Below, piece after piece: positions 493-41,049 of a stretch of DNA of 57,466 bases (the stretch's first letter is position 1; each line of letters starts with the position of its first letter). The DNA is from Candidatus Dormiibacterota bacterium (GTDB lineage: Bacteria; Chloroflexota; Dormibacteria; CF-121): the NCBI GenBank assembly GCA_035716185.1, contig DASTJZ010000075.1, positions 1-57,466 of the forward strand. Direction: 5' to 3'. The position numbers and the translations under genes were made by a program. The notes below the pieces were generated by a model. It was not told where the DNA came from and ran no database searches. It saw nothing but the letters and a program-made list of their open reading frames with translations.

Positions 493-1257
493 TCATCCGG
501 CGAGCGCCATCGGCTCCTGGCCGGCGGGGTAGGTGACCTTGGCGGTGAACCGGTAGCCGACGCCGCGCTTGGTCTGGATGTAGACCGGCTTGCCGGGATT
601 GGGTTCGATCTTGCTGCGGAGCCGAGAGATGTGGACCCGCAGCCCCTCCTCATAGGCTTCCTCGTCGCCGGCCCAGGCCTTGGCCAGCAGGGTCTCGTTG
701 GTGACGACCCTGCCGGCATTGCGGACCAGGAGAAAGAGCAGCTTGGACTCCGTCGGCGTCAGGGTGACCTGATGGCCCTTCACGCGGGCCCAGTGCTGCA
801 CGAAATTGATCTGCAAATCCTGGTCGATGACGACCTCGGGCTGTTCGACGCCAGCCGATTCGCCGTAGCGGCGGAGCACCCGCTGCACGCGGGCGACCAG
901 TTCTTCCTTCTCGAAGGGCTTGACGATGTAATCCTCGGCGTACATCTGCAGCCCCTCGACCTTGCTCTCGACCGCGGCGACCGCGCTGAGGATCACAATG
1001 GGAACGTCGAGGTGGCTCTTGATGCGCCGACAGAGCTCAAAGCCGTCCATCTCAGGCATCATCAGGTCAACGACGACAAGGTGGGGAATGCCCTCATGCA
1101 GCTTGCGTAGCGCTTCCGGTCCGCTTCCCGCGGTCATGACTTCATAGCCGGCGTGCTCGAGAATCCGCTTGAGGATCTCGCGGGCCATCGCGTCGTCGTC
1201 GACGATGAGGATCCGATACCGGTTGACGATGTTGAACCCCTCTCTTCCGGCGGCCAT
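493..1257 (-). CDS. OmpR/PhoB-family two-component response regulator (no kinase in window)
   Basis: Receiver ILIVDDD...VVVDLMMPEMDG...IVKPF plus winged helix LTPTESKLL...LRVHISRLRSKIE...IQTKRGVGYRF. Start uncertain: ATG 1257, or ATC 1230 after SD-like AGAGGGG. Confidence 0.95.
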   Translation of the reverse strand: MAAGREGFNIVNRYRILIVDDDAMAREILKRILEHAGYEVMTAGSGPEALRKLHEGIPHLVVVDLMMPEMDGFELCRRIKSHLDVPIVILSAVAAVESKVEGLQMYAEDYIVKPFEKEELVARVQRVLRRYGESAGVEQPEVVIDQDLQINFVQHWARVKGHQVTLTPTESKLLFLLVRNAGRVVTNETLLAKAWAGDEEAYEEGLRVHISRLRSKIEPNPGKPVYIQTKRGVGYRFTAKVTYPAGQEPMALAG

Positions 1258-1363
1258 CGCACGTCGCGCTGCCGATCGGCCTCCATGGATTTGGACCTGC
1301 AGGTGCTGGCTCAGGTCCGATTGGACAGCCGGTGAAGATATATGGCTGTCGTCCTGCATTTCC

Positions 1364-1382
1364 TTACGATTCCTCTTTACGA
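1364..1382. promoter_or_regulatory. TTACGAT direct repeat upstream of the response regulator, possible operator
   Basis: TTACGA at 1364-1369 and 1377-1382 (13-bp period); third TTACGA near 1462. Confidence 0.25.
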
Positions 1383-1499
1383 TGTGATGACTCTTGTCGC
1401 GTCAGGGTCACGTGCGGCCAGTGCGCGGCGCGCCAACGTGCATCACCTTAGAGATCCAGGCTTACGACCCCTGTTACAGGCTCGTCAATCGGGGAGGCG

Positions 1500-1530
1500 A
1501 AGGGCGCGAGCGGTGCCTCTCGCGCCCTTT
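1500..1530. terminator. GC-rich hairpin, terminator-like
   Basis: AAGGGCGCGAG-cggtgcct-CTCGCGCCCTT(T): 11-bp perfect stem with a short T-run. Confidence 0.45.
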
Positions 1531-1617
1531 GATGCAAGCCTATGGCGATCACCACGCCGATGAATCGGTCGCTCGGCCCATGGCCGCCGGCCAGACGGTA
1601 CAATCTCTGTCGCCCTC

Positions 1618-1701
1618 GCCCGGGTGGTGGAATTGGTAGACACGCAGCTTTGAGGGGGCTGTGAGCGCAAGCTTGTAAGGGTTCAAATCCCTTCCCGGGC
1701 A
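1618..1701 (+). tRNA. tRNA-Leu(GAG)
   Basis: Acceptor GCCCGGG/CCCGGGC-A, D-arm GTGGAATTGGTAGACAC, anticodon arm CAGCT-TTGAGGG-GGCTG, long variable arm, T-arm AAGGG-TTCAAAT-CCCTT; CCA not encoded; TACAAT -10 at about 1599-1604. Confidence 0.97.
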
Positions 1702-1715
1702 GAGCCCCTTCCACG

Positions 1716-37780: not shown

Positions 37781-38403
37781 CGGCGGCCACGATCAGCGCG
37801 CAGCAGGTCAAGGCGCTGCGCGATGCGACCGGGACCGGCATGATGGACTCGAAGCGGGCGCTCGAGGCGACGGAAGGGGACGTCGAAAAGGCGAAAGACT
37901 GGCTGCGACAGAAGGGGATTGCCCGAGCCGGGGTGAAAGCCGCCCGGCTGGCGGCCGAGGGCCTGGTGGAGATCTACCTCCACCACAACCACCATCTCGG
38001 CGTGCTGGTCGAGCTCAACAGCGAGACTGACTTTGTCGCCAGGAGTGACGCCTTCCGCGAGCTGGCGCACGAGTTGGCGGTCCACATCGCGGCGGCCGAC
38101 CCGCGTTACCTTCGCGTCGAGGACATTCCCTCCGCGGTGCTGGAGCGCAAACGCGAGGAAATCCGGGCCGAGGCGATCCGCCAGAAGAAACCGGCCGCGG
38201 TGATCGAGAAAATCATCGATGGCAAGCTGGGCGCGTTTTACGAGCGAGAGGTGCTGGCCGATCAGCGCTGGGCCAAGGACGACACGCGTACCGTGCAACA
38301 GGTTCTCGCGGACGCGGTCGCGCGCTTCGGTGAAAACCTGACGGTGTCGCGCTTCGCCCGCTTCAAGGTCAAGGACAACGGCGAAACGGAGGAGCAGCAA
38401 TAG
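37777..38403 (+). CDS. tsf: Elongation factor Ts, short form, copy 1
   Basis: [41 protein letters not shown]; 208 aa. Confidence 0.93.
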
Positions 38404-38405
38404 CC

Positions 38406-39005
38406 ATGGCCATCTCAGCCGATCAGGTCAAAGCCCTTCGCGATGCCACCGGGGCAGGAATGATGGACTCGAAGCGGGCTCTCGAGGCGACCAACGGTGA
38501 CCTCGAGAAGGCCAAGGACTGGTTGCGACAAAAAGGCATTGCCAAGGCCGGCGCTAAGGCAGCCCGCGTTGCGCGGGAAGGCATCATCGCCACCTATGTG
38601 CACCACAATCACCAGCTTGGGGTGCTGGTCGAGCTCAATAGTGAGAGCGACTTCGTGGCGCGCAACGAAGAGTTCCGCCACCTGGCGCATGAAATCGCGG
38701 TGCACATCGCGGCCGCGGAGCCACGCTACCTGCGCCGGGAAGACGTGCCCAACGAGGTCCTGGACCGCGAGAAGGCGATCTTCGAAGCGCAGGCCAGCGA
38801 CCAGAAGAAGCCGCCTCAGGTGGTCGAGAAGATCGTGCAGGGCAAGCTCAACGACTTCTACAAACGAGAGGTCCTGCTTGATCAGGCCTGGGCCAAAGAC
38901 GACAAGCGCACGGTGGACCAGCTCCTGAAAGAAGGCATCGCCAAGCTGGGCGAGAACATAACCATTTCTCGCTTCGCCCGTTTCAAGGTCGGAGAAGCCA
39001 GCTAG
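38406..39005 (+). CDS. tsf: Elongation factor Ts, short form, copy 2
   Basis: Same architecture, [12 protein letters not shown]; 199 aa. Confidence 0.95.
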
Positions 39006-39018
39006 TCCCATCCATGCC

Positions 39019-39756
39019 GTGATCAAGCCGTCGCCTGAGCCACGCTACAAACGGGTGCTCCTCAAGGTGGGCGGCGAGGGCCTTGCCGGAAAAGCCGCGT
39101 TTGGCATCGACCCGGACACCGTTCGCGAGATCGCGGAGGATATCGTCCGCGTTCGCAGTACCTATGACACCCAGTTCGCCGTCGTGGTCGGCGGGGGCAA
39201 CATCATCCGAGGCGACGCCGCCAGCAAGCGGGGGATGGATCGCGTGACGGCCGACTACATGGGAATGCTGGCCACCGTCATCAACGCCCTCGCCCTCCAG
39301 GATGCGCTGGAAAACATCGGACAGCCGACCCGGGTGCAGACCGCGATCAGCATGCAGCAGGTCGCTGAGCCCTATATCCGGCGCCGTGCCGTCCGGCATC
39401 TCGAGAAGGGGAGGGTGGTGATCCTGGCCGCCGGGAGTGGCAACCCCTACTTCAGCACCGACACGACAGCGGCCCTGCGCGCCGTTGAAATCGAAGCCGA
39501 GGTGGTGCTCAAGGCGACCAAGGTGGATGGTGTCTACGATTCCGACCCGGCGACGAACCCCAAGGCCAAGCGCTTCAGCCGGCTGGACTATCTGGACCTG
39601 ATCAACAAGGATCTTCGGGTCATGGATCTTACGGCCGTGACGCTGTGTCGGGAGAACAACATCCCGATCATCGTCTTCGATCTGGGTCATGAGGGAAACC
39701 TCGAGGGCGTGGTAACCGGCAAGCCGATCGGCACCTACGTCGGCGCGCCGGCATGA
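39019..39756 (+). CDS. pyrH: UMP kinase
   Basis: [38 protein letters not shown]. Confidence 0.97.
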
Positions 39757-40310
39757 TCGAGGCCAATGTCCGAGAGGCGGAGACCAAGATGCAGAAGAGC
39801 CTGGATGCCCTGGGCCGAGAAATCCTGACCATCCGCACCGGGCGGGCCAGTCCGGCGCTGGTGGACAAGATCCCGGTCGAGTACTACGGCAATCCGACGC
39901 CACTCAACCAGTTGGCGACGATCACCGTGCCCGAGGCGCGCATGATCCTGATTCAGCCCTGGGATCGTTCGATCATCAGCGCAATCGAGAAGGCGATCCA
40001 GAAGTCGGAGCTAGGGCTCAACCCCGGTAACGACGGGCAGTTGATCCGCGTTCCGATTCCGCCCCTCAATGAAGAGCGGCGCCGCGAGTACGCCCGACTG
40101 GTCAAGCGGTATGCCGAAGAGGCACACGTTGCGGTCCGCAATGTTCGCCGCGAGCAAATGGACCGGATCAAGGCGCTGGAAAAAGAGAAGAAAATCTCGG
40201 CCGATGAAGCGCGGCGTGGCGGCGACCAGCTGCAGAAGGTCGCCGACCGCTACATCGGGTTGGTCGATCAGATGGCGGCGCGCAAAGAAGCGGAAATCAT
40301 GGAGGTGTAG
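39753..40310 (+). CDS. frr: Ribosome recycling factor
   Basis: [32 protein letters not shown]. Confidence 0.97.
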
Positions 40311-40326
40311 TCGGCACCATCAACCA

Positions 40327-41049
40327 GTGAGTCAGGAGGCCCCGCCGCAGCACGTCGCAATCATCATGGATGGCAACAGCCGCTGGGCGCGCGATCGCCT
40401 GCTCCCTCGGGTGATGGGTCACAAGGCGGGGATCGAATCGATTCGCCGCGTTGCCGAAGCCGCCGACCAGCGCGGCGTCCGCGTGCTGACCCTCTATGCG
40501 TTTTCGACCGAGAACTGGTCGCGGCCGCGCGATGAGGTCGACGCCTTGATGACGCTGTTCTCTGAAACCATCCGGCGCGAGGTCGACGAGCTGGCGAGGC
40601 GTGGCATCGAGCTCCGATTCTCCGGCCGAATTCATGAACTTTCCCCGGCGCTGCAAGAACAGATGCGCCAGGCGACCGAGCGGACCCGAGTGAGCTCACG
40701 CGCCATCCTGAATATCGCCATCAACTACGGCGGACGGATCGAGATCCTGGACGCCATCCGGGAACTGGCCAGGGAGGGCGCCGACCTGAGCGCCATCGAT
40801 GAGGCTATGCTGGCCGCGCATCTCTATACCCGCGGGCTGCCCGATCCGGACCTGGTCATCCGGACGGCGGGGGAGATGCGGCTCAGCAATTTCCTGCTCT
40901 GGCAGAGCGCCTACTCGGAGTTCTACAGCACGCCGACGCTCTGGCCCGACTTTGGTGGCGCGGATTTCGACGAGGCGCTTGCCTCCTACCAGCGCCGGAT
41001 CCGCCGCTTCGGCGCCAGACCGGAGGAGGTATCGAATCGAGGCCGCTGA
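40327..41049 (+). CDS. uppS: Undecaprenyl/isoprenyl diphosphate synthase
   Basis: HVAIIMDGNSRWA, YAFSTENWSRP, NYGGR, RTAGEMRLSNFLLWQ. Confidence 0.96.
   Translation: MSQEAPPQHVAIIMDGNSRWARDRLLPRVMGHKAGIESIRRVAEAADQRGVRVLTLYAFSTENWSRPRDEVDALMTLFSETIRREVDELARRGIELRFSGRIHELSPALQEQMRQATERTRVSSRAILNIAINYGGRIEILDAIRELAREGADLSAIDEAMLAAHLYTRGLPDPDLVIRTAGEMRLSNFLLWQSAYSEFYSTPTLWPDFGGADFDEALASYQRRIRRFGARPEEVSNRGR

Follow-up and report, generated by a model that had tools for sequence, protein, structure and literature searches.

Can a bacterium keep housekeeping genes whose translation starts at codons other than ATG, GTG or TTG? The question is raised by a stretch of 57,466 nucleotides (contig DASTJZ010000075.1), analyzed here over its whole length and called the window in what follows. 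A first inspection of the letters, the sequence-only reading, had proposed seven loci with near-cognate start codons and offered two explanations for them, an altered stringency of initiation factor 3 (IF3) and the 30S ribosomal subunit or a deliberate use of weak starts. Comparison with related genomes shows that at least four genes, namely fabD, rnc and two unannotated genes for small membrane peptides, contain no ATG, GTG or TTG from which their predicted conserved protein could be made. The same probably holds for cdsA and rlmN. The reading we favor, with a probability of roughly 0.7, is that initiator tRNA would start on weak codons that are aided by their local context. Throughout the text, a canonical start is ATG, GTG or TTG.

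The window has a G+C content of 64% and about 61 protein genes, the majority of them on the plus strand. Among the names that close homologues carry are Candidatus Dormibacteraeota, Ca. Dormibacter sp., Chloroflexi and Ca. Limnocylindria, and from these names the lineage appears to be close to Ca. Dormibacterota. Likely genes were translated from the preceding stop codon and scanned against NCBIfam, asking whether the family profile aligns 5' of the first ATG, GTG or TTG. For the comparison we used relatives that share this gene order and come from independent assemblies at ENA, JGI and NCBI (DNA loci L074-L076, L079, L159-L163 and L165-L172), whose FabD is 64-89% identical to that of the window. 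A FabD search of genome contigs returned no close relative (best match 45% identical), a FabG search of metagenome contigs gave L079 as the sole useful locus, and an exact look-up of the window FabG sequence found it not to be on record. Each site was judged on three points: whether the codon is kept, whether the bases upstream behave as untranslated, with free variation and indels that are not multiples of three, and whether variation downstream falls on third codon positions.

Sequencing or assembly errors might have destroyed the canonical starts, an outcome that had been named beforehand as a possible refutation; the one point in its favor is that these sequences are metagenome assemblies. 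The same codons, however, occur in five to nine assemblies whose projects (ENA, JGI and NCBI) and samples are separate, and the layout is kept across the relatives at the FabD identities given above. The pattern compared here is not an assembly artefact, and we regard this explanation as refuted, with next to no probability left to it.

The clearest case of the set is a small gene that runs antisense into the end of recG.

13150 to 13401, minus strand: unannotated small open reading frame (ORF) of 83 codons, candidate start ATA at 13401-13399
13409 to 13416, minus strand: putative Shine-Dalgarno (SD) sequence GGAAGGAG with AAGGAG (13414-13409) as its core; 7 nt separate it from ATA 13401

It is the clearest because the pattern of a ribosome-binding site is present with ATA in the position of the start. 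The minus strand reads GGAAGGAG-CACCAGC-ATA GTC GTC GTC GAT..., and between the upstream stop and ATA 13401 there are zero canonical codons. AAGGAG and ATA are invariant in all six genomes compared, the 7-nt spacer is different in each of them, and the codons after ATA are kept as GTC GTC GTC GAY in six of six. The ORF measures 80-85 codons in every one of these genomes, and over its first 30 codons the variable columns are distributed 14/5/25 by codon position. Its N-terminal part corresponds to a conserved membrane-helix-like peptide (IVVVDAILGILLVLVLP..., consensus IVVVD(A/V)xxGxxLVLVxP...GR), which initiation at the first canonical codon within the ORF, GTG 13332, would delete. ATA 13401 is thereby strongly supported as a start codon. 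The predicted protein is absent from a collection of 15 billion proteins and has no Pfam or Rfam match, and promoter and terminator scans near 13401 detected nothing. Over its last ~38 codons (13150-13266) the ORF lies opposite the 3' end of recG, in antisense orientation. In this antisense part the G+C content by codon position is 0.87/0.87/0.50, which looks dictated by recG. The tail itself, RGGRPRxGRR, is conserved in the six genomes.

The second small membrane gene follows the DUF2007 gene directly.

22894 to 23025, plus strand: unannotated membrane peptide of 43 residues, candidate CTG start overlapping the TGA of the DUF2007 gene

CTG 22894-22896 and TGA 22895-22897 form the overlap CTGA, a register of -4. 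The window contains 13 ordinary overlaps of the type NTGA (eight ATGA, four GTGA and one TTGA), and here this architecture is repeated with C as its first base. L074, L075 and L076 share the CTGA of the window; L160 reads GTGA, and JGI called a gene of 42 residues in this locus. The encoded peptide, a hydrophobic helix followed by GxLWLxQFVxxNEE, is conserved in six loci; across the compared loci no conserved internal canonical start is found in the 43-codon ORF. GAGGA stands 9 nt before the CTG. A Pfam search of the peptide gave no match. Taken together, the comparison strongly supports CTG 22894 as a start codon in a stop/start overlap.

Among the housekeeping genes, fabD has a family profile that extends upstream of the first canonical codon.

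15280 to 16197, plus strand: fabD (acyl carrier protein S-malonyltransferase), no canonical start, candidate starts ACG 15280 and CTG 15292

The fabD frame opens at 15223 and is without ATG, GTG or TTG as far as 15318; the first canonical codon, GTG 15319, falls after the conserved motif AFLFPGQGAQ. The alignment to the profile TIGR00128 begins 12 residues upstream of GTG 15319, and more than 70 distant homologues align, as does the profile, from residue 2-5 of the extended N-terminus. None of nine genomes (the window and eight relatives) has a canonical start upstream of AFLFPGQG. One might argue that such N-terminal segments are not translated at all, that translation sets in at the next canonical codon downstream and that the conservation has another cause. 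Automatic callers have indeed produced models of this kind for many RNase III homologues and for more than 100 public close homologues of FabD, the latter called from an internal Met at MARDL. A FabD beginning at MARDL would, however, lose the conserved GQG motif that the profile covers. That fabD is without a canonical start able to give the conserved protein is, on this comparison, strongly supported.

The position of the start can be narrowed down from the variation around the preceding stop, the TAG of rpmF at 15263-15265. This stop is followed by a gap of 8, 9, 11 or 14 nt, variable in sequence, and then by ATC in L079, L159, L160, L161 and L162 or by ACG in the window, L074, L075 and L076. 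After ATC or ACG there are one or two codons and then GCC TTC CTG TTT CCA GG, so that conservation begins at ATC/ACG. Since the changes in gap length are not multiples of three, the gap is predicted to be untranslated and the fabD start to lie at or after ATC/ACG. The CTG used in the source annotation (15292) is CTC in L160, which makes ATC the sole near-cognate codon in that relative. In the window, the start would be either ACG 15280 or CTG 15292. The possible N-terminal peptides of FabD are (M)LAFLFPGQGAQFVGMAR, (M)FPGQGAQ... or MARDL..., and the segment at issue includes AFLFPGQGAQFVG. In L079 (~2380-2420) and L159 (9974-10004), fabD lies in the rpmF frame with TAG and three codons between.

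The same junction bears on the idea that fabD and rnc are reached by recoding, that is by frameshifting or read-through from rpmF and acpP, which would yield fusion proteins. In favor of this idea, both genes abut an upstream stop and their frames are open back into the upstream gene. It is contradicted by the frame relation between rpmF and fabD, which changes from -1 in the window to a shared frame in L079 and L159, and by the four gap lengths; no slippery site is visible. For rnc, relatives with a GTG inside acpP display a normal layout of overlapping genes. To our knowledge, there is no precedent for fusions of L32 with FabD or of acyl carrier protein with RNase III. Recoding is in our view very improbable.

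In rnc the evidence includes the pattern of substitutions over the N-terminus.

17170 to 18030, plus strand: rnc (RNase III), no canonical start; 17170 is the CTG of the source annotation

The frame is open from 17134, the stop of acpP (TGA) lies at 17247-17249, and the conserved RNase III N-terminus begins by ~17269 with D-E-P-L-Q-K-L-Q-R-T-L-R-V-R-F-H. In the seven genomes of the window clade, 62 open codons upstream of GTG 17320 are without a canonical start; the profile TIGR02191 starts 11 residues upstream of this GTG. GTG 17320, the first canonical codon, is not conserved and reads GTA, GTC, CTC, CCT or GCT in relatives. Over the 19 N-terminal codons before QALTHRS, variable columns are distributed 5/3/19 by codon position (p=9e-5), and this third-position variation argues that the rnc N-terminus is translated. 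We therefore regard as strongly supported that rnc has no canonical start while its N-terminus is under clear protein-level selection.

The substitution pattern also speaks to the suggestion of untranslated N-termini. The upstream segments, including LQKLQRTLR of RNase III, vary almost only at third positions, the downstream canonical codons are not conserved among the relatives, and an Rfam search of the window returned a tRNA match only, with no RNA family over the regions of the non-canonical starts. We consider it improbable that these segments remain untranslated. As for the exact codon, the annotated CTG 17170 is CAG in L074. In the more distant L159 and L163, rnc has a GTG start 47 nt inside acpP; the window clade has GAG there (17195-17210). 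This change from GTG to GAG is synonymous in acpP (GGT to GGA), and we take the silent change to have removed the rnc start codon in the window clade. The loss of this GTG while the N-terminus stays under selection leans toward an explanation of wider reach, an organism-wide relaxation of start discrimination through an altered IF3, 16S P-site region or initiator tRNA, with canonical starts having drifted away in many genes. We return to it below.

For two further genes the comparison gives moderate support.

41036 to 41902, plus strand: cdsA, probable ATC start at 41036 in a 14-nt overlap with the end of uppS; canonical alternative GTG 41099
41022 to 41029, plus strand: putative SD sequence GGAGGAGG, 6 nt before ATC 41036 and within the 3' end of uppS
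3034 to 4131, plus strand: rlmN, possible CTG start at 3034; canonical alternative ATG 2905, adding 43 poorly conserved residues

Upstream of cdsA the sequence is GGAGGAGG-TATCGA-ATC, in frame with the gene. The SD sequence and ATC 41036 are conserved in L172, with one change in the spacer that is synonymous in uppS. Between the window and L172, all four substitutions in 41050-41098 are synonymous third-position changes in the cdsA frame (p=0.012). The counterpart of window TTG 40979 in L172 is an in-frame TGA, which rules out upstream canonical cdsA starts in that relative. ATC 41036 is thus a probable start of cdsA.

The case of rlmN depends on where the coding signature begins. Substitutions relative to L171 are distributed by codon position as 5/7/4 in 2905-3033, 1/0/4 in 3034-3090 and 6/2/11 beyond, and the G+C content at third codon positions is 0.58 in the 2905-3033 extension vs 0.83 in the body of rlmN. 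These values indicate that 2905-3033 has no coding signature and that the signature sets in at about 3034. When extrapolated, the RlmN profile would begin about four residues past CTG 3034, and in L166, where the upstream gene is a different one, there is again no canonical start before the conserved AFAT motif. A small diverging gene begins 14 nt from ATG 2905. The evidence gives moderate support to CTG 3034 as the rlmN start, the exact codon being a candidate. Ten nt upstream of it, TAGAAT (3018-3023) is kept in L171; it might be the -10 element of a near-leaderless rlmN mRNA. Promoter and terminator scans near 3034 found no full promoter and no terminator. Two paralogous small ORFs diverge from rlmN on the minus strand (2524-2664 and 2743-2890; 46 and 49 residues). 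They share the motif ..F(A/T)LFGR...DTRWV.SADS.EYLAVV.YLVQR.., are conserved as a pair in L171 and have no Pfam match.

The seventh site lies inside a regulator gene and was rejected.

493 to 1359, minus strand: OmpR-family response regulator, start ATG 1359 or ATG 1257

ATC 1230-1228 on the minus strand is preceded at 6 nt by GGAAGAGAGGGG, and L166 shares both this ATC and the purine-rich run. Further upstream are the in-frame codons ATG 1257 and ATG 1359, of which the latter is conserved in the window and L166. Upstream of the ATC, 11 of 13 substitutions relative to L166 fall on third positions (p=2e-4), and the sole indel is 3 nt long. This coding signature makes ATC 1230 an internal codon; the GGAAGAGAGGGG run encodes G-R-E-G.

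Two more candidates were also dropped. The gene rnhB seemed to be without a canonical start, and in-frame TTG 26717 and GTG 26726 are present in its overlap with rplS. In this region (rplS/rnhB, 26389-27469), rnhB and the 3' end of rplS share at least 70-100 nt in different frames. Several close relatives start rnhB with a TTG-coded Leu, and the window has CTG 26753 at this codon; GTG 26726 and TTG 26717 are located 9-12 codons before it. Among the public models of RNase HII from the clade, many show truncation after the catalytic DEAGRG motif. At rpmB, the combination of an SD sequence with ATC at 7820 is spurious, and ATG 7808 is conserved. The GGAGG upstream of rpmB (7808-7835, minus strand) lies ~20 nt from this ATG, unusually distant for an SD sequence, and the spacing is the same in relatives.

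The remainder of the window looks conventional. For about 55 other genes, the NCBIfam scans place the N-terminus of the family profile in agreement with a canonical start; examples are rpe (GTG 6372), rpmB (ATG 7808), rsmD (ATG 13461), yraN (ATG 27444) and uppS (GTG 40327). The source annotation uses CTG 15292 for fabD, CTG 17170 for rnc, ATG 2905 for rlmN, ATG 1257 for the regulator, GTG 41099 for cdsA and GTG 26726 for rnhB. The gene order is given below in three parts.

First part: OmpR-type regulator, tRNA-Leu, rlmN, rpe, rpmB, fakA, degV, recG, rsmD, coaD
Second part: rpmF, fabD, fabG, acpP, rnc, smc, ftsY, ylxM, ffh, rpsP, rimM, trmD, rplS, rnhB
Third part: topA, rpsB, two tsf copies, pyrH, frr, uppS, cdsA, dxr, rseP, ispG, proS, relA, hisS, aspS

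The two tsf copies are tandem short EF-Ts genes of ~200 residues each (37777-38403 and 38406-39005), both matching the tsf profile from position 2. The tandem pair is also found in L172, and L163 shows one copy only. A small ORF at 2229-2391 on the minus strand resembles Flp/Fap-type pilins (MMIGWRDSEKGQALIEYSLIMCLVVIVVL...), a likeness judged by eye.

How much of this could be expected by chance? The window contains 172 chance pairs of an SD-like 5-mer and a start-like codon, located 4-10 nt after it, with which an ORF of 35 or more codons begins, and in 125 of these pairs the codon is near-cognate (CTG, ATC, ATT, ATA or ACG). With 125 chance pairs, an SD sequence next to a near-cognate codon is no evidence by itself, and only comparative evidence counts. 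This affects the sequence-only reading in several ways. All of the codons that it named exist, those at 1230 and 13401 being on the minus strand, which it had left unstated. Four of its seven sites (ATA 13401, CTG 22894, fabD and rnc) are strongly borne out, ATC 41036 and CTG 3034 moderately so, and ATC 1230 is internal. Its argument from SD sequences at three sites proves non-specific and was wrong for one of the three, ATC 1230, and the codon tally anchored on SD sequences that it had suggested as a check cannot discriminate given the 125 near-cognate pairs. It had cautioned that some cases have canonical alternatives; these exist for cdsA (GTG 41099), rlmN (ATG 2905) and the regulator (ATG 1257 or 1359).

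The frequency of the supported sites can be set against published values. In well-annotated genomes, ATG, GTG and TTG account for 81.8%, 13.8% and 4.35% of annotated starts and other codons for ~0.05% (Hecht et al., 10.1101/063800), baselines that are biased since gene callers ignore near-cognate codons. When initiation is measured in E. coli, AUA, AUC, AUU and CUG reach 1-2% of the AUG level and the rest, ACG included, 0.1-1% (10.1101/063800). In the window, 4-6 of ~61 genes appear to have a non-canonical start vs 0.03-0.6 expected, and the probability of at least 4 in 61 genes is 4e-8 at a baseline of 0.05% and 0.004 at a baseline of 1%, rates that hold at the level of one window of 57 kb picked for looking odd. 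Judged by these comparisons, non-canonical starts are unusually frequent in the window.

How might these genes be translated? Initiator tRNA would read the weak codons ATA, CTG and ATC and, in the case of fabD in the window, ACG or CTG. Codons that differ from AUG at a single position are involved at ATA 13401, CTG 22894, ATC 41036 and fabD (ATC in five relatives, ACG or CTG in the window). Two kinds of context could compensate for the weakness of the codon. The first is a strong SD sequence at ideal spacing, as in AAGGAG-7 nt-ATA and GGAGGAGG-6 nt-ATC. The second is a start at or just past an upstream stop, as in the CTGA of the DUF2007 gene, in fabD 8-14 nt after rpmF, in cdsA at uppS and in rnc at the end of acpP, where terminating ribosomes could re-initiate. 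Of the six supported sites, all but CTG 3034 have a strong SD sequence or a position at or near an upstream stop. The expected consequence would be a low output that is fixed relative to the upstream gene, and the model needs no change in the initiation machinery. Because five of six sites lie in contexts able to compensate for a weak codon, the evidence fits deliberate weak starts better than an altered stringency of IF3 and the 30S subunit, the other of the two options originally offered.

Several points weigh against this preferred reading. Translation itself is predicted here from sequence comparison, and the choice of a conspicuous window, as said, limits what its rates mean. Both cdsA and rlmN have in-frame canonical starts in the window that the source annotation uses: the E. 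coli-type CdsA profile aligns from the annotated GTG 41099, and upstream of CTG 3034 lie ATG 2905, the annotated start, and GTG 2911. No SD sequence is visible before CTG 3034, and the one before fabD is weak (TAGGT only). ACG, in E. coli a codon of the class with 0.1-1% of AUG activity (10.1101/063800), would be a poor start for fabD. In rnc, the only near-cognate codons shared by all nine genomes are ACG codons, which the acpP frame holds fixed.

A general relaxation of start discrimination, introduced above with rnc, would account for the density of 4-6 in ~61 genes, for the presence of essential housekeeping genes among them and for the diversity of the codons (ATA, ATC, CTG and perhaps ACG). 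It is at odds with the ~55 other genes that retain ATG, GTG or TTG in keeping with their family profiles. Moreover, the compensating contexts at five of the six supported sites, with the CTG 3034 of rlmN excepted, would be needless if discrimination were generally relaxed, and the pairs of SD sequence and near-cognate codon that are common inside genes would then be harmful. The components in question lie elsewhere, as infC, 16S rRNA and tRNA-fMet are found neither in the window, whose sole tRNA is tRNA-Leu, nor in the fetched relative loci. On balance we hold such a relaxation to be rather unlikely, and prefer initiation on weak codons assisted by context.

If the pattern is real, selection has maintained weak starts in the housekeeping genes of a deep clade, which would provide a system to study how SD strength and upstream coupling replace codon strength and a test of initiation fidelity between phyla. 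A more far-reaching version, in which the whole soil lineage resembling Ca. Dormibacterota starts several percent of its genes, among them essential ones, at ATA, ATC, CTG or even ACG, or as in rnc at codons still to be recognized, is a tentative possibility. It would rest on an altered IF3, 30S P-site or initiator tRNA, or on unusually heavy use of termination-reinitiation, and would imply that standard callers systematically mis-annotate a phylum with truncated enzymes and missed small proteins. Effects on annotation are already apparent: the more than 100 public FabD models mentioned above are without the catalytic N-terminus, and many models of RNase III and RNase HII are truncated. Two conserved small membrane proteins are missing from the source annotation, one of them called in L160 only, and the CTGs that the NCBI annotation chose for fabD and rnc are each missing from one relative (L160 and L074, respectively). 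We found no paper on start codons in Dormibacterota, and a broader search of the literature on near-cognate or non-canonical bacterial starts gave no lineage-wide report.

The closest known examples are infC and pcnB of E. coli, which have natural AUU starts with low expression that depend on an SD sequence and are proofread by IF3. The genes described here resemble them in having a codon one base away from AUG as a conserved start. They differ in that several are found in one 57-kb stretch, including fabD, rnc and probably cdsA, in the codons themselves, which are ATA, ATC, CTG and perhaps ACG rather than AUU, and in showing no evident autoregulation of the infC type. A second parallel is translational coupling, for which NTGA is described as the commonest layout in prokaryotes in the parts of PMC12548453 available to us. 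The CTGA after the DUF2007 gene, the cdsA/uppS overlap and fabD at 8-14 nt past the rpmF stop are all reminiscent of it. The overlapping start, however, is CTG instead of ATG, GTG or TTG, and those parts of PMC12548453 make no mention of coupling to ATC or ACG starts a few nt past a stop. A third comes from the test of all 64 codons for initiation in E. coli, where AUA, AUC, AUU, CUG and even ACG proved able to initiate with methionine, the ACG product being confirmed by mass spectrometry (10.1101/063800). Unlike the synthetic reporters of Hecht et al., the weak codons discussed here are natural, conserved in a clade and located in housekeeping genes. Initiation at near-cognate codons is thus a known phenomenon, and what stands out here is its density in this window, the essential genes among those affected and the case of rnc.

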